NCBI GenBank assembly: GCA_964616725.1
Contig: CAZTRW010000001.1
Location: 9,465 to 73,464 of the forward strand
DNA length: 64,000 bases
DNA from: an uncultured bacterium
Lineage (GTDB): Bacteria; Cyanobacteriota; Cyanobacteriia; Cyanobacteriales; Desertifilaceae
Direction: 5' to 3'
A program made the translations under genes and the position numbers. Of the stretch, positions 3,948-16,020 are shown piece by piece (within the stretch, counting starts at the first letter, position 1; each line of letters opens with the position of its first letter). Under the pieces are notes generated by a model, which worked only from the letters and a program-made list of their open reading frames with translations, searched no databases and had not been told where the DNA came from.

Positions 3948-4010
3948 ATTTTTTTCCTGATTAATTGAATCACCTATACAACGCCATCAAACTTTCTCTT
4001 GTTTTTTGTC

Positions 4011-4220
4011 TTACCCTTCCGTCATTTTGAGTAAAAACATCAGAGAAACAAAAAACATTAACCCTAACCAGACTAGTAAAACAGTCGTAAAGGTTGTATG
4101 GAAATAACTACAGACGAACAGGACCACAAAAAAGAGAACGACTGTAATCACTAAATAAGCCATCAGTTGGCCCAAACAACCTTGAACCGATCCAGAAAAA
4201 TCATCATGGGGTGGTCTCAT
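4011..4220 (-). CDS. Small membrane protein, hypothetical
   Basis: Two hydrophobic stretches; fills the gap between co-oriented genes. Confidence 0.4.
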   Translation of the reverse strand: MRPPHDDFSGSVQGCLGQLMAYLVITVVLFFVVLFVCSYFHTTFTTVLLVWLGLMFFVSLMFLLKMTEG

Positions 4221-4274
4221 AGCAATGGTATTTTAACAGAAGAGCGGAAAAGAATAGGTAGGCCCTGTTGACCC

Positions 4275-5210
4275 CTAACGACCAAAATAGACTCGTGCAT
4301 TGGTTAAGCCTGCATTCTGCAAGACTAAGCTAATTTCTGTAGCCTTACTCCGGTGAGGATAAGGGCCGATCGCCACATGAGATCCGCGACGAGAGCGCCT
4401 GGCGATCGCATTAGCATTCGGCACAATCTGCCGCACACGATTAGCGATCGCATCAATAGTAGCGTCTGATCCAGGAATCACCACATAGTAACCCCGATCC
4501 GTTATCCCAGTCCTTTCAGCCACAGCCGGAACTCCAGCGGGAGCAGCGGCAACTCGTCCCCCTGACATCGTAACCACCTCGGCGAAAATTCCTCGCGATC
4601 GCAACTGATTTAAACGCTCTCTAGCATTCCCTTCCTCCCGAAAAGCTCCCGCTTGAATCGCCCTTCTACCATCAATTTCCGTCGTAAAAGCATCAGGAAC
4701 AACCTGTTGAATCTGCTGTAACAATAACGGCGAATTCCCATTCACAAACACCCAATATTCCACAGTGCCCCCCGGAAAATTCCCTGGTGGCAGCGGCGGA
4801 AATTGTCCCCGCACCCTCCCCCCATCATTCACTAAACTGGTTCTTCCCACCTCAAAAGGATACCCTCGTTGTCGTAGCCGTTCCGCTTGTTCAAAGGCAG
4901 TTAACTCATCGGGATAAATTCCCGCTTGAATCACCGTTTCCCCCTGATACTGTTGGATTACTGCAGTGGGAACCAGACGGCGAATCGCCTCCAACTGCAT
5001 CGGATTCCCTCGCCAATAAACCAAATAAACTTGATCCCCATTACCGGGAAATGTGGGAGCCACATTAGGAGTCCTCATCCCCTCACGAGGCTGTCCCTCA
5101 ATCAAAGGAGGAGGCAAAGGAGACTGAGCATTAGCAGCCAGAGTGATAATTACAGATAATAGAATCACTCCCGGATAGATCATGGAACAGTGGTTATTGC
5201 TATTCATCAT
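4275..5210 (-). CDS. Secreted protein with three SPOR-like internal repeats
   Basis: Signal peptide (..LAANA). Three repeats of YxV...L..IRQ.VP.A...G...(IQ)AG.(F/Y)....A...L...G. Confidence 0.6.
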   Translation of the reverse strand: MMNSNNHCSMIYPGVILLSVIITLAANAQSPLPPPLIEGQPREGMRTPNVAPTFPGNGDQVYLVYWRGNPMQLEAIRRLVPTAVIQQYQGETVIQAGIYPDELTAFEQAERLRQRGYPFEVGRTSLVNDGGRVRGQFPPLPPGNFPGGTVEYWVFVNGNSPLLLQQIQQVVPDAFTTEIDGRRAIQAGAFREEGNARERLNQLRSRGIFAEVVTMSGGRVAAAPAGVPAVAERTGITDRGYYVVIPGSDATIDAIANRVRQIVPNANAIARRSRRGSHVAIGPYPHRSKATEISLVLQNAGLTNARVYFGR

Positions 5211-5308
5211 TGTCTGAGCATGATATGGCCCCTAACCCTAGGGGAGGTGTTACCTTAGAAGGGTACACAACAATTAGGCATTTGTTGAGAATTTCCTGAG
5301 TCACTTCC

Positions 5309-6364
5309 ATGAAAAAGGTCGTTGTCGGACTCTCCGGAGGGGTAGATAGTTCCACTGCTGCTGCTGTGCTCCATCATCAAGGCTATGAGGTGGTGGGGTT
5401 AACCCTGTGGTTGATGAAGGGTAAGGGACAGTGTTGCTCAGAGGGGATGGTGGATGCCGCGAAGATTTGTGAACAACTGGGAGTTCCTCACCATATTGTG
5501 GATAGTCGTGAGGTGTTTCAGCAAGAGATTGTGGATTATTTGGTGGCGGGTTATCGGGAAGGAATTACGCCATTGCCGTGTTCTCAGTGCAATCGGGCGG
5601 TGAAGTTTGGCCCGATGATTGGGTATGCGCGATCGCACCTGAATATCGATTTTATTGCCACAGGTCATTATGCTCGCGTTGAGTTTGACCCAGAGTTAGG
5701 ACGTTATCAGTTGAAAAAGGCGATCGATCTGCAAAAAGATCAGTCCTATTTCCTGTACGATCTCTCCCAAGAGATTCTCACTGCCACTCTGTTTCCCCTC
5801 GGTGAAACTCCCAAAACGGAAACTCGTCGCCTCGCCGCTCAGTTTAACCTCACAACCGCAGATAAACCCGAAAGCCAAGATTTATGTCTGGTGGAAAGTT
5901 ATGGCTCCATGCAGTCCTTTTTGGATCAATACATCAGCCCAAAAACGGGCGATATTGTTGATCAAACGGGGAAAGTCTTAGGGCAGCATCAAGGGATTCA
6001 TCATTATACCATTGGTCAACGACGGGGGTTAGGAGTGGCCTATTCTGAACCTTTGTATGTGGTCGATCTCGATCCCGTGATGAATCGCGTGATTGTGGGG
6101 ACTCGTGAGAGTGCGGCCGATCCTCACTGTACTGCCAGTCGCGTTAATTGGGTCTCTATTGCTCCCCCAGATGAACCTCTGCGTGCTGAAGTTCGCATCC
6201 GCTATCGGGCTGAACCTGTGCCGGTAACGGTGATTCCTTTGCTAGAGCATCGGGTAGAGTTGCGGTTTGATCAACCTCAGTTTGGGGTTACTCCTGGTCA
6301 AGCGGCGGTTTGGTATGATGGCGATCGCCTCCTCGGTGGCGGTATCATTGAGCGAAAACCCTAG
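5309..6364 (+). CDS. mnmA: tRNA 2-thiouridylase MnmA
   Basis: [45 protein letters not shown]. Confidence 0.97.
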
Positions 6365-10081: not shown

Positions 10082-10912
10082 GTGGACTTAACTAAGATTT
10101 TTCAAACGCCAAACCCCATTATTGGTGTCGTTCATCTCCTCTCCCTACCGACCTCATCGCGGTGGGGAGGAAATCTCAACACTGTGATTGCCCGGGCTGA
10201 GCGAGAAGCAACGGCCTTGGCCTCCGGTGGCGTAGACGGCATCATTGTAGAAAACTTTTTTGACGCGCCCTTTACGAAAGACCGAGTTGATCCCGCAGTG
10301 GTTAGTGCCATGAGCTTAATTGTTGATCGGCTCAAAAATCTGGTCACCTTACCCATTGGGGTCAATGTCTTACGCAATGATGCTCATAGTGCCTTGGCGA
10401 TCGCCTCTTGTCTAGAAGCCGCCTTCATTCGAGTCAACGTCCTCACCGGCATCATGGCCACCGATCAAGGCTTAATCGAAGGCAGAGCCCACGAACTGCT
10501 CCGCTATCGTCGCGAATTAGGCACAGACGTAAAAATCTTTGCCGATGTCCTCGTCAAACACGCTTATCCCCTAGGCGATCAACTGCTCACCCCCACCATT
10601 CAAGAAACCATAGACCGAGGTCTAGCCGATGCCATTATCCTCTCCGGGCCAACCACGGGCACTCCCCCTAAACCAGAAGATCTCCAACTCGCCCGTCAAT
10701 GCACCCAGGCAACCCCCCTATTCATCGGGAGTGGCGCAGATTGGCATAACATTGGTTCCCTGCTGGAAAATGCGGATGGGGTGATTATTGCCAGCGCTCT
10801 CAAGCGCCACGGCCAAATTGACCAACCGATTGATCCGACACGAGTCAATCGGTTTGTGGAAGCAGCTCAACACAGTCTCAAAACTCGTCATTTTCCTGAG
10901 GAGAAACTTTGA
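10082..10912 (+). CDS. btpA: Photosystem I biogenesis protein BtpA
   Basis: IIGVVHL, IVENFFDAPF, GVNVLRND, FIRVNVLTG, ADVLVKHA. Confidence 0.92.
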   Translation: MDLTKIFQTPNPIIGVVHLLSLPTSSRWGGNLNTVIARAEREATALASGGVDGIIVENFFDAPFTKDRVDPAVVSAMSLIVDRLKNLVTLPIGVNVLRNDAHSALAIASCLEAAFIRVNVLTGIMATDQGLIEGRAHELLRYRRELGTDVKIFADVLVKHAYPLGDQLLTPTIQETIDRGLADAIILSGPTTGTPPKPEDLQLARQCTQATPLFIGSGADWHNIGSLLENADGVIIASALKRHGQIDQPIDPTRVNRFVEAAQHSLKTRHFPEEKL

Positions 10913-10965
10913 CTGGGCGATCCTAGTCCATCTCAACACAATCAGTAGAGTTTAGGAATCAAAAT

Positions 10966-11445
10966 ATGGCGATAAAAACAAACATTCGTTCTTTTGTTTC
11001 TGGGTGGCTAGGCTTGACCCTGGGAGGATTGACCCTCATTGGCCCTGTTACTCCCCTGGGAATAGAAAGTTTGCCAGCCCAAGCTCAAGGTACCGTCACG
11101 CCTCAACCAATTAATACCCCTTCTACCCCCGCTAGTTTGGCTCTAGCGGAACATCTCCAGCGACTAGGGGCAAAAATGTATGGCGCGTCTTGGTGTCCCC
11201 ATTGCCAGTCTCAAAAAGAGCGATTTGGAGCAGAGGCGGTGACCCGTTTTTTTTACTCACCTACCCAGGCTGTGTATGTGGAATGTTCTCCGAATGGGCG
11301 GAATACTCCTCAAGCTCCTGTGTGTCAGCAAGCGGAAATTCGAGCCTATCCGACTTGGGTAATCAATGGAGAAAAATATGAGGGAAGTTTATCTCTAGAA
11401 AAGCTGGCTGAATTGTCGGGATATTCAGGTTCGCTACAGTTTTAA
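10966..11445 (+). CDS. Exported stand-alone thioredoxin-like protein, paralog of the VKOR C-terminal domain
   Basis: Signal peptide ending AQA; LAEHL..GAKMYGASWCPHC..QK; YVEC; AYPTW. Confidence 0.78.
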   Translation: MAIKTNIRSFVSGWLGLTLGGLTLIGPVTPLGIESLPAQAQGTVTPQPINTPSTPASLALAEHLQRLGAKMYGASWCPHCQSQKERFGAEAVTRFFYSPTQAVYVECSPNGRNTPQAPVCQQAEIRAYPTWVINGEKYEGSLSLEKLAELSGYSGSLQF

Positions 11446-11535
11446 GGGGTGGATTCCGGGCGGGATATTGGTCAACTCTTGCCTTTTTGTGTTGCAATCA
11501 AAGATAGTAATCCCCATTTACCGCAGAATGAGAGT

Positions 11536-12456
11536 ATGAGACGTAGGCGTTCTATTCCCTGGATTCATCGTTGGTCTCGACCAATTATGGCAGCGATCGC
11601 CACTTTAGGGGCGATCGAAACTGCCTTTTTAACTTGGGCAGAGTTGGCAGGACAAGTAGAAGCTATCTGTCCCACCACTGGCTGTAAACAGGTGTTAGGA
11701 AGTCCCTATGCCATGGTGTTTGGTCAGCCTCTTACCCTGTTTGGCTGTTTAGGCTATACCGCTATGGTGATGCTGGCGATCGCACCCTTATTCCTCAATC
11801 AGGATGAGCAAAAAGAACGACGACTCACCGTAGAGCAATGGACCCAATTTCTCCTCTTTACCACCAGTACCGTCATGGTAGTAGGCAGCGCCTATCTTGT
11901 CTACCTGATGGCCTTTAAAATCGAGGCCTTCTGCCCCTATTGCCTAATTTCTGCCTGCTTGTCCCTCAGTTTATTCGTCCTATCCATCATTGGCCATCCC
12001 TGGGAAGATATCGGACAACTCGCCTTTACCGGCATCACCGTAGGAATGGTTACCCTAGTCGCTACTCTAGGAGTCTATGGTAGTGTCAACAATGCCACTA
12101 ATAATGCCGCCACTCCCCCAGGAACTCCCCCTCTAGTAACCACCCCCTCTGGGCCCGCTGAAATCGCCTTAGCCGAGCATCTCAAGCAAATTGGGGCGAA
12201 AGAATATGGAGCCTATTGGTGTCCCCATTGCCATGAGCAAAAGCAGTTATTTGGCAAAGAAGCGGCTGATCTGATTAACTATGTTGAGTGTGCTGCCGAT
12301 GGGGTAAACTCTCAGATGGCTCAATGCCAGGCCGCAGGAGTGCAAGCCTTTCCCACTTGGGAGATTAAGGGGCAACTTCACGCCGGAACTAAGTCCCTGA
12401 ACGAATTAGCTGATTTATCCGGTTATCAAGGCCCCCGTAATTTCCGACCACAGTGA
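11536..12456 (+). CDS. VKOR-thioredoxin fusion (cyanobacterial disulfide bond formation enzyme)
   Basis: Starts MRRRRSIPWIHRWSR. VKOR cysteines (CPTTGC, FCPYC), VLGSPYA, C-terminal WCPHC thioredoxin domain. Confidence 0.9.
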   Translation: MRRRRSIPWIHRWSRPIMAAIATLGAIETAFLTWAELAGQVEAICPTTGCKQVLGSPYAMVFGQPLTLFGCLGYTAMVMLAIAPLFLNQDEQKERRLTVEQWTQFLLFTTSTVMVVGSAYLVYLMAFKIEAFCPYCLISACLSLSLFVLSIIGHPWEDIGQLAFTGITVGMVTLVATLGVYGSVNNATNNAATPPGTPPLVTTPSGPAEIALAEHLKQIGAKEYGAYWCPHCHEQKQLFGKEAADLINYVECAADGVNSQMAQCQAAGVQAFPTWEIKGQLHAGTKSLNELADLSGYQGPRNFRPQ

Positions 12457-12614: not shown

Positions 12615-14789
12615 TTGGTAATACTACCGCCCTTGCCTGTGAGCCATATCATTGATTCTTTTTGGACTCAACTGACTCGCCGTTTTTCTAATCGCCATCG
12701 AGTCATTTTTACAGCGTCTGGTATCACTTTAGTCATTCTGGCTCTACGTTCTTTGAGTCTATTCCAATCCCTGGAATTACTAGCCTTTGATGCTTTTATC
12801 CGTCTGCGTCCTCAGTTACCCAAGGATCACCGGATTGTGATTATTGGTATTGATGAGCCTGATCTGCAAAAGTTAGGTTCTCAGATTCCCGATCGCACCC
12901 TAGCGGCTCTCTTGCAAAAAATCCATCAAGGTCAACCGAGTGTGATTGGTTTGGATTTGTACCGGGATCTCCCGATCAATCCTGGTCATGAACAATTACA
13001 AGCCGTGATGAAACAATTACCGAATTTGATCGGTATAGAGCGCATTGAAGATCAAATTTCGCCTCGCGTCCCTCCCCCTCCAGTGTTAGATCCGAAAACT
13101 CAAGTGGGGTTTAATAATGTGGTTCTTGATGTCGATAGTAAGGTGCGCCGAGGATTGCTGTATCTACACGCCGATCAGGTTTTGCACAGAAGTTTTGCTT
13201 TACAAATTGCCCTTCAATACCTAGAACCGTCACAGATACAAGAAAATCCCGCACCGGTTAATCCTCAATACTTGCAGCTAGGAAAAGGGGTTTTTTATCC
13301 CTTTCAACCCCATGATGGCGGTTATGTAAAAGCCGATAATAAAGGGTATCAATTTTTAGCTGATTTTCGTGGCCCGCGGAATACATTTACCACGGTTTCG
13401 ATTTCTGATGTCTTGGAGAATAAAGTAAGTCAGGAGTTATTTCGCGATCGCATCGTCTTAATCGGCTTAACAGCCGTGAGTCTCAAAGATTTTGTGGAAA
13501 TTCCCTACAGTCACCCAGAAAAAGTACCAGGAGTAGAAGCGCAAGCCAATTTGATTAGCTTTATTATCGATGTCGCACAGGGACAACAAACCTTAATCAG
13601 AAGTTTACCCGATCTGCTGGAAGGGCTATGGATTTTTGCTTGGTCTGGTTTGGGAACGGTGTTGGCGTGGAAATTTCGAGTTCCCTATCAGTTTCTGCTG
13701 GTGTCTATATCAGCAATGGCATTGCTCATTACTATAAGCTATATGCTGTTTGTTGATCGCTGGTGGTTTCCCGTGATTCCTCCTGTGGCGGGGTTTGGTG
13801 GTGCTGCGGTGATGATTTTAGCTCATTTTGCCTATCAAGAAGGGGAACTCAAGCGATCCACAGAGTTTCTGCAAGGAATTATTAACACCATTGCTGACCC
13901 CATTTTTGTCAAGGATCAAAACCATCGCTGGATTGTGCTCAATCAAGCCTATGCTCACTTGGTTGGTTATCCTCTTCAGGTGCTGATCGAAAAAACGGAA
14001 TATGAATTGTTTTCCCAAGCCGAAGCAGAGCGGTTTTGGCAGCAAGATGAGCAGATTTTTATTACCCACCAAACGACAGAGCAGGAGGAAGTGTTTACTG
14101 ATGCAGGCGGCATTCGACGAGTAATCGCGACGAAAAGATCCCTCCATCGAGACTCTGGAGGGAATTTGTTCTTGGTGGGGGTGATCCGAGATATTACGCA
14201 GCAAAAGGAACGGGAAGCGGAGTTACAGCGGTTGGCGGAAGAGTTGAAACGACATAATGCGGAACTGCGCCTTTCTGAGGATCAGATGCGTCATCTGGCG
14301 AATCATGATGCGCTGACGGGTTTGGCAAACCGGAAGTTGTTTGAGGAAAAACTCCAAGAGGCTTTGGTGTCTGCTCGCGCTCATGAGAAGATGCTGGCAA
14401 CGTTTTTTCTGGATTTGGATGGCTTTAAGCAAATTAATGATTCCTTGGGCCATGATATGGGGGATGTGGTGATTAAAGAAGTGGCTCAACGACTCAAGCA
14501 TTCTTTGCGGGGGACAGATACGGTGGCTCGATTGGGAGGGGACGAGTTTACCGTAATTTTACCGGAAATTCCGAGTGAATCTGTGGCGATTCGAGTGGCG
14601 GAAAAAATTATTGCGGCAGTGACTCAGCCTCTGATAATTGGCGATCGCCAACTTCATATTACTCTGAGCTTAGGGATTAGTCTTTATCCCGATCACGGGG
14701 AAACCCTGGAAACTCTCGTTAAATCAGCCGATCAGGCCATGTATCAAGCGAAAATTGCCGGTAAAAATCGCTATCTTCTGGCTTCTTGA
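12615..14789 (+). CDS. CHASE2-TM-PAS-GGDEF diguanylate cyclase
   Basis: CHASE2 motifs (IVIIGIDE, IGLDLYRDLP, GFNNV..D.D..VRR, PGVEAQAN), three TM segments, a PAS domain, intact GGDEF with RGTD I-site. Start codon uncertain. Confidence 0.92.
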   Translation: MVILPPLPVSHIIDSFWTQLTRRFSNRHRVIFTASGITLVILALRSLSLFQSLELLAFDAFIRLRPQLPKDHRIVIIGIDEPDLQKLGSQIPDRTLAALLQKIHQGQPSVIGLDLYRDLPINPGHEQLQAVMKQLPNLIGIERIEDQISPRVPPPPVLDPKTQVGFNNVVLDVDSKVRRGLLYLHADQVLHRSFALQIALQYLEPSQIQENPAPVNPQYLQLGKGVFYPFQPHDGGYVKADNKGYQFLADFRGPRNTFTTVSISDVLENKVSQELFRDRIVLIGLTAVSLKDFVEIPYSHPEKVPGVEAQANLISFIIDVAQGQQTLIRSLPDLLEGLWIFAWSGLGTVLAWKFRVPYQFLLVSISAMALLITISYMLFVDRWWFPVIPPVAGFGGAAVMILAHFAYQEGELKRSTEFLQGIINTIADPIFVKDQNHRWIVLNQAYAHLVGYPLQVLIEKTEYELFSQAEAERFWQQDEQIFITHQTTEQEEVFTDAGGIRRVIATKRSLHRDSGGNLFLVGVIRDITQQKEREAELQRLAEELKRHNAELRLSEDQMRHLANHDALTGLANRKLFEEKLQEALVSARAHEKMLATFFLDLDGFKQINDSLGHDMGDVVIKEVAQRLKHSLRGTDTVARLGGDEFTVILPEIPSESVAIRVAEKIIAAVTQPLIIGDRQLHITLSLGISLYPDHGETLETLVKSADQAMYQAKIAGKNRYLLAS

Positions 14790-15069
14790 GATCAACTCAG
14801 TTTCTTGCCGAAAGTTTTAACAATTCTTTATAATTTAGCTCAATTTTCTCCGGTTTAACCCGATAAAGTGAGAATAAAGGAGAAGAATTCCGTAGATTCT
14901 CAGAGTTTTCTGCGCAGAACTCCCGGTTTTTCAGAAAGACAATACAAAATCTTCTGAAAAAAAAAACCGTATATGCACGGAATTTTGCCGAAGGGATGAT
15001 TGACAATCAGTTTTAAATTCGGTAAAACTGCCAGTATAATTGAAAGTAAGTCTCGAATAGGCTAGGGTT

Positions 15070-15303
15070 ATGAGTATGGAAACCGTCTTGGCATTAGAAA
15101 ATATGACCGTTATGTTGGCAAGTGGTTTGTTGGCGATCGCCAGTTTCTCCTCACCTAGCTGGGGAGTAACCAATACGCACGGTAACATTCACGAGATGGC
15201 TGAAGTTCATCAAGCCGTCCCTCCTTTGGCTGTGTTGCTGAAAGGCTATGAACCTCCTGATAATGGGAAACCTGACCATACAGGAGATACAGGGGGGCGT
15301 TAA
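15070..15303 (+). CDS. Small putative secreted peptide precursor with C-terminal PPDNGKP..GGR motif
   Basis: 77 aa; hydrophobic N-region (VMLASGLLAIASFSSPSWG) and Pro/Gly-rich tail ending in Arg; co-oriented 280 nt behind the CHASE2 gene. Confidence 0.55.
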   Translation: MSMETVLALENMTVMLASGLLAIASFSSPSWGVTNTHGNIHEMAEVHQAVPPLAVLLKGYEPPDNGKPDHTGDTGGR

Positions 15304-15654
15304 CTTAATCTAATCTGTTATCCTCACGGGTTAAGGTAAATCAGGGATACAAAAAATTGCCCGATCAAGGGTTTATATTAATTAAAATTACCATATACTC
15401 ATCAAGCTAAGGCAGACTCTATCTAGCCTGTGGGCTGGTGTGCCCTAGAGAAATATCAAGTTTCTTTACGGTTTTGCGTGGGAGAAGTAACTTATCCTTA
15501 AGGATAAAGTGTAGTTGTTCTGAGTTGACAAGAATTAGATTCAACCTTTCTATAGGATAGCACGGGAAATACAGAAGTGAAAACCCAGGGCGATCGCTTC
15601 CTCAGTAACACCAATTCGGAAAATCTCGCAAGACGCTTTTGCTTCTCAGTTCAA

Positions 15655-15888
15655 CATAATAGCGCTTCGCGCTGTATCTCCCTGATTCTCCCGATTTTAA
15701 TCCTATAGAAATGCGGTGGTGTCTTTTGTCTGAGGTTTTGCCCCTACTACCAGTGCTATAATTGATGTTCTTCTGTCCGTAGCTCTGAAGTTGATTGATC
15801 CTGTTCATGTCGGACGAAGTCCGAAAACCTTTAAAAAACTGGTTGACTCATTGTTGTACTGTCCATCATAACAGCGCTAAGCGCTGTA
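15655..15888 (+). repeat. Two copies of a 22-nt palindromic unit CATAAYAGCGCTNNGCGCTGTA
   Basis: Copies at 15655-15676 and 15867-15888; 3 mismatches between them. Confidence 0.7.
15804..15824 (+). repeat. 21-nt hairpin element, copy 2
   Basis: TTCATGTCGGACGAAGTCCGA followed by AA. Confidence 0.8.
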
Positions 15889-16020
15889 GTTCCCCTGCTG
15901 GGGCAGTGAAAAAAAGGGAATGATCGGCTTTTGATCCTGGCGATCGCCACTCTAGACCCTTCTCCATAGATCTGGGACAATCTAAAGAATGCCAAACGCT
16001 AATTCTGATGGTTTCCCAGA

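Follow-up and report, generated by a model that had tools for sequence, protein, structure and literature searches.

The window considered here is the whole stretch of 64,000 nucleotides (nt) analysed from an uncultured cyanobacterium of the Desertifilaceae. It contains a gene for a diguanylate cyclase with CHASE2-transmembrane-PAS-GGDEF architecture, called the receptor below, which is followed on the same strand by a small open reading frame (ORF) of 77 amino acids (aa). On the pattern of its conservation, this small ORF is a genuine, widely conserved, and unannotated cyanobacterial gene. Its product joins a predicted export leader to a C-terminal motif that is shared with the DUF928 proteins encoded beside a second class of CHASE2 receptors, and, judged by comparison across cyanobacteria, it most likely acts in the periplasm on the CHASE2 domain of the receptor, as a partner or ligand. 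An earlier sequence-only reading of the window had drawn attention to the ORF and had paired it with the cyclase; it placed the ORF correctly behind the receptor gene and gave its tail accurately.

Conservation and anatomy of the small gene

A first protein search returned five relatives of 68-70 aa with about 50% identity, the named ones belonging to Roseofilum. A search of 1.84 billion representative proteins with a six-sequence profile added one relative of 62 aa. Both the single-sequence and the six-sequence profile searches recovered Roseofilum-type relatives only and no DUF928 protein. The final 22 residues are near-invariant in these relatives although the underlying DNA varies. Between the window and Roseofilum the proportion of synonymous differences in the tail (pS) is 0.39-0.65, and that of replacement differences (pN) is 0.04-0.12; for these first relatives the figures are 0.45-0.65 (pS) and 0.04-0.10 (pN). 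When 16 pairs from five clades are pooled, the ratio of nonsynonymous to synonymous change (dN/dS) is 0.19 in the tail, 0.39 in the leader, and 0.47 in the linker. The large excess of synonymous over replacement changes in the tail indicates that the small ORF is a real gene under purifying selection at the protein level, and the codon comparison shows this selection to be concentrated on the tail. Conservation of the tail in homologs had been set beforehand as a test, and the tail is the conserved element; the assumption that the ORF is translated also agrees with the selection on it as a protein. In addition, members from different cyanobacterial orders share the reading frame, the leader, and the place of the stop although their linkers differ by insertions and deletions.

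The back-translated tail pattern PPDNGxPxxxGDxGG gave three matches in 185,579 species genomes, all in Roseofilum, the pattern being too strict for the wider family. Taken alone, the Roseofilum-only searches would suggest a genus-restricted orphan. This picture was overturned by the DNA downstream of distant receptor orthologs. A small same-strand ORF comes right after the receptor ortholog in Roseofilum, a TARA contig, Aerosakkonema, Gloeocapsa PCC 7428, Nodularia, and Microcoleus, and the ORFs outside Roseofilum likewise pair a homologous, hydrophobic leader with this type of tail. The tail runs directly into the stop codon in Gloeocapsa PCC 7428 (FIPPRKGAPKSTQGSGTR), Nodularia (YIPPNNGGPDSQHGSGTR), Microcoleus (YEPAPNGNPKSDGTGTR), and Aerosakkonema (YQPSCQEKCDAPDSSTGSGTR); in the TARA contig it reads YVPPDKGGPDDSTGTGTR and is followed by 12 further residues.

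A less biased sample of 80 loci was obtained by scanning metagenome contigs with an alignment of the receptor's CHASE2 part. A hidden Markov model (HMM) of the tail was searched against 26,227 six-frame segments (97 loci and the window, about 0.9 Mb), and tails were called by a neutral scan for GxGxR followed by a stop, by the HMM, and by manual inspection. Every HMM match at E ≤ 4e-5 is a small ORF on the receptor strand, 360-1320 nt past the stop codon of a GGDEF-type receptor, and the motif ends at the stop codon in all but one of them. Four syntenic loci without an HMM match still carry the gene, with the variant tails ...PKDGGAGGGR, ...EGGGGRLR, and ...DTGAGGGRYY, each before the stop.

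A profile built from 27 diverse members reached 371 protein clusters at E ≤ 10. The 120 of these that were listed are all 68-128 aa long and have no Pfam domain, and the named entries among them are all "hypothetical protein", mostly from Nostocales. Scans against the curated families of Pfam and NCBIfam gave no match for the ORF of the window or for any family member. When the search was started in reverse, from one protein found with the profile, a CHASE2-PAS-GGDEF gene was found immediately upstream in Nostoc FACHB strains. The association with CHASE2 genes foreseen by the sequence-only reading is thus present well beyond the genus of the window.

The anatomy of the family was drawn from 34 unique sequences. 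A short n-region is followed by a hydrophobic core of 12-16 residues (often ...T.ATLL.G.QLF) and then by helix-breaking Pro/Gly and small residues, which are AEA, SLA, ANA, or SWA in relatives; this N-terminus is predicted to be a Sec-type leader or a membrane anchor. The linker is of low complexity, rich in Ser, Thr, and Asn, and variable in length (about 25-50 residues) and in sequence. The C-terminal motif comprises 18 residues, [YF]-x-P-P-x-x-G-x-P-x-x-x-x-G-x-G-[TG]-R-COOH. In the window, the start codon in common with relatives is the second ATG, and the ORF closes with ...LLKGYEPPDNGKPDHTGDTGGR and the stop. The leader there has the hydrophobic core VMLASGLLAIASF, followed by SPSWG; its 12-residue mean Kyte-Doolittle hydropathy is 2.1, and SWG supplies small residues, as predicted for the h-region and the -3,-1 site of a Sec leader. 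No lipobox (L-x-x-C) is present in the window leader, which reads LAIASF at this place. Lipobox-like ends (LAAC, LAGC, or IASC) are confined to some of the relatives (Microcoleus-like, Roseofilum), and a lipoprotein reading of the window ORF was rejected because its leader has no Cys.

Some members depart from this layout. A clade represented by L012 (8438-8653) and L024 (6821-7039) has the two-Cys motif YxPSCQxKCDxPDxSxGSGTR, probably a form of the tail constrained by a disulfide. L028 (3991-4338) keeps YEPKDNGGPK and has lost the GxGxR end, and L011 (8326-8601) carries 12 extra residues beyond the Arg. From these two atypical members it follows that a free C-terminal Arg is usual and not absolute.

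The motif in DUF928 proteins and the link to the receptor

The tail HMM also gives weak matches inside longer ORFs adjoining CHASE2 genes that have no GGDEF domain. Pfam identifies these longer ORFs as DUF928 (E 4e-28 to 1.7e-50) and finds CHASE2 and an adenylate/guanylate cyclase domain in the genes beside them. By tblastn, 16 of the 22 non-GGDEF CHASE2 loci have a DUF928 gene as direct neighbour on the upstream or the downstream side, and all 16 of these DUF928 neighbours carry [FY]xPPxxxxPxx[ST]xG[GST]G[ST]R-G-x-C shortly behind their leader. Aligned by hhalign, the profiles of the small ORF and of DUF928 match with a probability of 95.5% (E 1.4e-8) over 28 columns. The resemblance to DUF928 to which the sequence-only reading had pointed is therefore borne out. 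Among the 26,227 six-frame segments, the tail profile matches only the small-ORF type and DUF928 proteins.

Small ORFs stop exactly where DUF928 carries on. The profile of the DUF928 domain (PF06051, 184 positions) matched neither the window ORF nor any of 27 relatives at E ≤ 1. The description that suits the small protein best is that of a DUF928 N-terminus reduced to its motif. The DUF928 proteins beside CHASE2 adenylate/guanylate cyclases resemble the small protein in the Sec-type leader, in the motif [FY]xPPxxxxPxxxxGxGxR, and in the neighbouring CHASE2 receptor. They differ in a domain of about 180 residues that continues after the Arg (R-G-x-C...), whereas the small ORF stops at this residue. 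The partner receptor differs as well, having a cyclase output in the case of DUF928 and a PAS-GGDEF output in that of the small ORF. These comparisons show one motif, predicted to be secreted, accompanying two classes of CHASE2 receptor. DUF928 has been mentioned in passing as the neighbour of a CHASE2 gene (PMC5587647), and a literature search on the motif strings gave nothing relevant. What is new here is an undescribed family of small proteins and a motif shared with DUF928; the kind of system proposed, a small exported partner or ligand of a membrane second-messenger enzyme, is a known one. Many genes of the family carry no label beyond "hypothetical", and ordinary sequence searches fail to reveal that they are related.

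Linkage to the receptor was tallied over GGDEF-type metagenomic loci with at least 1.4 kb of downstream sequence. Among the 30 loci with at least one ancestral neighbour left (BtpA, VKOR, nadB, or psbU), 27 have the small ORF, a count that agrees with the neighbourhood association expected at the outset. It has stayed with the receptor where the downstream genes nadB and psbU are lost, as in the window (where cysK follows), L077, and L098/L099. In the Nostoc FACHB strains other genes replace nadB and psbU, and the small ORF is still found behind the receptor. It has also stayed where the upstream BtpA-VKOR pair is lost (L012 and L024). Retention when either flank is lost indicates an association above plain synteny. 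The recurrence of the motif beside the other CHASE2 class carries more weight than this synteny argument, because it is independent, occurs in variable orientation, and involves a different carrier.

In the receptor tree, the loci without a small ORF are confined to a few clades, and this clustering points to lineage-specific loss or relocation. Since several receptor clades have no adjacent copy (Phormidesmis, Leptolyngbya, and Coleofasciculus types), the receptor and the small ORF are not obligatorily linked. The peptide-receptor pair of the sequence-only reading is upheld in its comparative predictions, whereas export, processing to a free peptide, binding to CHASE2, and control of c-di-GMP are putative steps. 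One further receptor gene, in L087 (about 4001-6154), nests within the Nostocales clade but has other genomic surroundings and no small ORF; it was probably relocated or duplicated recently.

Proposed action on CHASE2 and competing explanations

The receptor fits the sequence criteria for an active GGDEF diguanylate cyclase. Its inhibitory (I) site and active site, called intact in the sequence-only reading, are so: they read RGTD-TVARL-GGDEF (aa 632-645), with RxxD five residues before GGDEF. Hydrophobic stretches at aa 29-58 and aa 354-405 lie one on each side of CHASE2 and, as membrane helices, would leave CHASE2 on the periplasmic side and PAS-GGDEF on the cytoplasmic side. There are 1295 receptor homologs at E < 1e-60 across cyanobacteria, with 50-74% identity; the identity is 50-53% in Coleofasciculus, Microcoleus, Nodularia, Calothrix, Gloeocapsa, and others.

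On these grounds the following mechanism can be proposed. The small protein would be exported, or anchored facing the periplasm, and its exposed tail would dock on CHASE2, the periplasmic domain of the CHASE2-PAS-GGDEF receptor encoded next to it. Docking would alter signalling through the membrane helices and PAS to GGDEF and would thereby tune the synthesis of cyclic dimeric guanosine monophosphate (c-di-GMP). The whole explanation, that is, a real gene whose leader and motif protein acts on the adjacent CHASE2 receptor to tune c-di-GMP, stands in our judgement at an even balance. Within it, export, direct binding, the sign of the effect on c-di-GMP, and the choice between action in cis (tethered or autocrine) and between cells are all matters that we infer.

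Small periplasmic proteins that act on a membrane cyclase are well known. In Pseudomonas and E. coli, the small periplasmic protein YfiR controls the membrane diguanylate cyclase YfiN (DgcN) via its periplasmic domain. The proposed logic would be alike, in that the gene next to that of a membrane GGDEF enzyme supplies a small exported protein, which acts on the enzyme's periplasmic sensor and so sets the c-di-GMP output. The YfiR-YfiN system differs in that YfiR is folded, the target is a periplasmic PAS-like domain, and the genes form one operon; there is no sequence relationship. The small ORF, in contrast, offers a short linear motif on a flexible tail to a CHASE2 sensor, from a gene that is apparently transcribed separately, and the likeness would be one of functional analogy only.

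CHASE2 occurs widely as an extracytoplasmic sensor, on cyclases and kinases as well as on GGDEF enzymes, and the small protein is a concrete candidate for its ligand or partner. In S. meliloti, the CHASE2 cyclases CyaD1, CyaD2, and CyaK sense a proteinaceous signal via the outer-membrane protein NsrA (PMC13001267, PMC7529298). That system resembles the present one in its CHASE2 receptors, its proteinaceous signal, and the help of a separate envelope protein; it differs in the nature of NsrA, a beta-barrel of the outer membrane, and in that of the signal, a ribosomal protein from plants. Two cyanobacterial cyclases, All1219 and Dgc2, have the same CHASE2-transmembrane-PAS-GGDEF architecture as the receptor of the window. 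The latter has Nostocales homologs with about 50% identity over 97% of its length and is likened to All1219 and Dgc2 by architecture. It has been reported that Dgc2 of L. boryana suppresses motility and biofilm formation, and its authors state that the ligands of CHASE2 are unknown and call for a search for ligands or binding partners (PMC10581220). Anabaena All1219 is one of two primary diguanylate cyclases, and its double deletion with cdgS was unobtainable (PMC13075795; bioRxiv 2025.11.04.686522); no input is named for it (PMC13075795). The Dgc2 and All1219 papers make no mention of a neighbouring small gene (PMC10581220, PMC13075795), and the Anabaena locus tags presumed to adjoin all1219 brought up nothing in the literature search. 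The shared motif turns the open question of the CHASE2 ligand into a directly testable one.

A broader and more tentative idea, possible but on the doubtful side, is that the motif [YF]xPPxxGxPxxxxGxGxR may be the cognate ligand or docking element of CHASE2 domains generally. It would then have two presentations, as the tip of a DUF928 co-receptor for CHASE2 cyclases and as the free C-terminus of a small secreted protein. The latter would feed back, within the filament or between cells, on the CHASE2-PAS-GGDEF cyclase and set c-di-GMP, cell size, and motility.

Several observations weigh against an action of the small protein on the receptor. The block BtpA-VKOR-receptor-small ORF-nadB-psbU is conserved as a whole, so that part of the adjacency is plain inherited synteny and adjacency alone is weak evidence. 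None of the 17 CHASE2-PAS-GGDEF loci that have none of these neighbours carries the small ORF (0/17), and at four syntenic loci (L013, L020, L045, and L083) a break point separates the two genes and no small ORF is adjacent. The distance between receptor and small ORF varies from 100 to 1080 nt across loci; such a spacer, together with conserved promoter-like blocks, suggests a separate transcription unit and not a tight operon. The n-region of the window leader, METVLALEN, has a net charge of -2 and no basic residue, which is unusual for a Sec leader. The N-terminus, described as signal-peptide-like in the sequence-only reading, is thus so in its hydrophobic core and small residues and not in its charge. 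The window is the sole case of a negative n-region among the 34 sequences, the other 33 ranging from 0 to +3. Lastly, the model of CHASE2 has no solved analogue that points to a peptide-binding site.

Much of this would fit a conserved small envelope protein unrelated to the receptor, whose adjacency results from co-inheritance of the block BtpA, VKOR, receptor, small ORF, nadB, and psbU. The neighbourhood does hold functionally unrelated genes conserved from Roseofilum to Nostocales, and the small ORF seems to own a promoter; the four breaks and the 17 receptor-type genes in other contexts without the small ORF point the same way. Such a protein leaves unexplained why the motif is found on DUF928, which flanks the other CHASE2 class at 16 of 22 loci and on either side, and why the small ORF is still beside the receptor at loci where one flank or the other has been replaced. 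We regard this explanation as unlikely.

It is less probable still, and quite doubtful, that the motif is a processing or targeting tag read by some further factor (a periplasmic protease specific for Arg, for instance, or a factor of export or sorting), with DUF928 and the small proteins both as substrates and only an indirect link to CHASE2. The motif ends in an invariant Arg, which in DUF928 is followed by G-x-C; cleavage of DUF928 after this Arg would give the same C-terminus that the small ORFs encode, and the context of the motif is flexible and of low complexity in both families. Against this, these neighbourhoods have no conserved gene for a protease or a sorting factor, the motif is limited to two families in the six-frame translation of about 0.9 Mb, and classical C-terminal sorting signals have a transmembrane segment after the motif, which is absent here.

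The sequence-only reading had compared the ORF with PatS/PatX, whose peptides carry RGSGR, and this analogy did not survive. PatS, PatX, and HetN are also small precursors with a hydrophobic N-terminus and an active, Gly-rich C-terminus that ends in Arg, and a morphogen precursor of this type would release a C-terminal peptide acting on HetR in the cytoplasm of neighbouring cells. Their active element is RGSGR and their target is cytoplasmic, whereas the family of the small ORF has an 18-aa unit that includes PPxxGxP and is not a pentapeptide, a proposed periplasmic CHASE2 target, and a distribution beyond heterocyst formers that includes the non-filamentous Gloeocapsa PCC 7428. RGSGR or RGTGR is found in none of the 34 members, whose tails are GSGTR, GTGTR, DTGGR, or GGGGR without the leading Arg, and the motif is common to the periplasmic DUF928 proteins. 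The called neighbours of the loci, to which the search was confined, include no hetR. A morphogen of this kind is very improbable. A precursor of a ribosomally synthesized and post-translationally modified peptide (RiPP) was likewise rejected, because no conserved modifying or processing enzymes are adjacent: no locus has a RiPP enzyme family among its neighbours, which are BtpA, VKOR, nadB, psbU, cysK, and similar genes. Finally, a spurious ORF or a decaying remnant of DUF928, with conservation due to a noncoding element, would suit its shortness and the lack of a curated family match and of transcript evidence, but synonymous changes far exceed replacements in the tail, frame, leader, and stop are kept across orders despite linker indels, and no Rfam family matches, which leaves this origin a negligible probability.

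Features of the region and neighbouring sequence

Table 1. Position of the receptor, the small ORF, and the elements between them in the window.
Feature	Position	Strand	Details
CHASE2-transmembrane-PAS-GGDEF diguanylate cyclase ORF	12615..14789	+	TTG start, 724 aa; Pfam matches to CHASE2, PAS, and GGDEF
CHASE2 sensor domain, periplasmic (predicted)	12726..13658	+	aa 38-348, Pfam PF05226, E 3.7e-66
PAS domain, cytoplasmic (predicted)	13863..14207	+	aa 417-531, Pfam PAS_4 and PAS
GGDEF catalytic domain	14298..14771	+	aa 562-719, Pfam PF00990, E 5.3e-53
RxxD I-site and GGDEF	14508-14549	+	motif RGTDTVARLGGDEF
TTCCGT box in spacer	14888-14897	.	related to the inverted repeat; kept between window and Roseofilum
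Conserved inverted repeat in spacer, CCGTATATGCACGG(AATT)	14967..14984	.	conserved in window and Roseofilum; weak hairpin by scan
Promoter-like site for the small ORF	15012..15040	+	TTTAAA, 17 nt, TATAAT; consensus scan, 10/12 matches
Small ORF (leader, linker, C-terminal motif)	15070..15303	+	77 aa; 75 aa from the conserved start 15076
Predicted Sec-type leader or membrane anchor, METVLALENMTVMLASGLLAIASFSSPSWG	15076..15165	+	hydrophobic core, small-residue site; homologous to the leaders of 33 relatives
Conserved C-terminal motif up to the stop codon, YEPPDNGKPDHTGDTGGR	15247..15300	+	tail HMM E 2.4e-10; aligns with the N-terminal motif of DUF928

In the window, 280 nt separate the receptor stop from the small ORF. 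The TTCCGT box and the inverted repeat could be a regulator binding site or a weak bidirectional terminator. The promoter-like site, assigned by consensus match alone, sits in a block that is near-invariant between the window and Roseofilum. An Rfam scan of the region gave no match.

Two AlphaFold2 models of the CHASE2 ectodomain have mean predicted local distance difference test (pLDDT) scores of 91.5 and 91.2. The model of the segment at 12798-13610 is an alpha/beta fold (pLDDT 91, predicted template modelling score (pTM) 0.91). Residues D93, G112-L113-D114, R117, N137, N167-N168, D172, D174, and R178-R179 of the ectodomain are invariant and lie on its surface. Foldseek searches of the PDB with both models gave no significant match, and a sequence search found no solved CHASE2 structure. 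A subtilisin-like fold, suggested by PagA, PatA, and subtilisin at the top of the Foldseek lists, was rejected as these hits are at chance level (template modelling score ≤ 0.26, E ≥ 0.3). The window derives from a hot-spring metagenome, to which no RNA run corresponds. A metatranscriptome labelled leaf litter holds a contig of 236 nt about 96% identical to window positions 14623-14858, which spans the 3' end of the receptor gene and 69 nt past its stop. Given this identity in an RNA library, the receptor of a close relative is represented there.

Ahead of the receptor, window positions 10082-12456 encode BtpA, a secreted thioredoxin-like ORF (WCPHC), and a VKOR-thioredoxin fusion. BtpA and VKOR hold their position from Roseofilum to Nostocales. 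Disulfide-forming proteins of the periplasm are encoded here beside a periplasmic sensor. An antisense frame of btpA imitates the GxGxR-stop end (...PPQRGEVGSGSR-stop in many loci, RFPPHRDEVGRERR in the window) and was set aside as an artefact of the opposite strand of a conserved gene. It lies at 10132-10377 on the minus strand of the window and, in L052, L065, and L067, about 4.5 kb upstream of the receptor stop.

Behind the small ORF, a 34-nt direct repeat with the palindromic core AGCGCTnnGCGCT occurs at 15649-15682 and 15861-15894, the copies being 79% identical. These two copies are the only ones in the 64 kb, and the repeat has no Rfam match. About 700 nt without any gene separate the small ORF from cysK, and the repeat lies in this interval.

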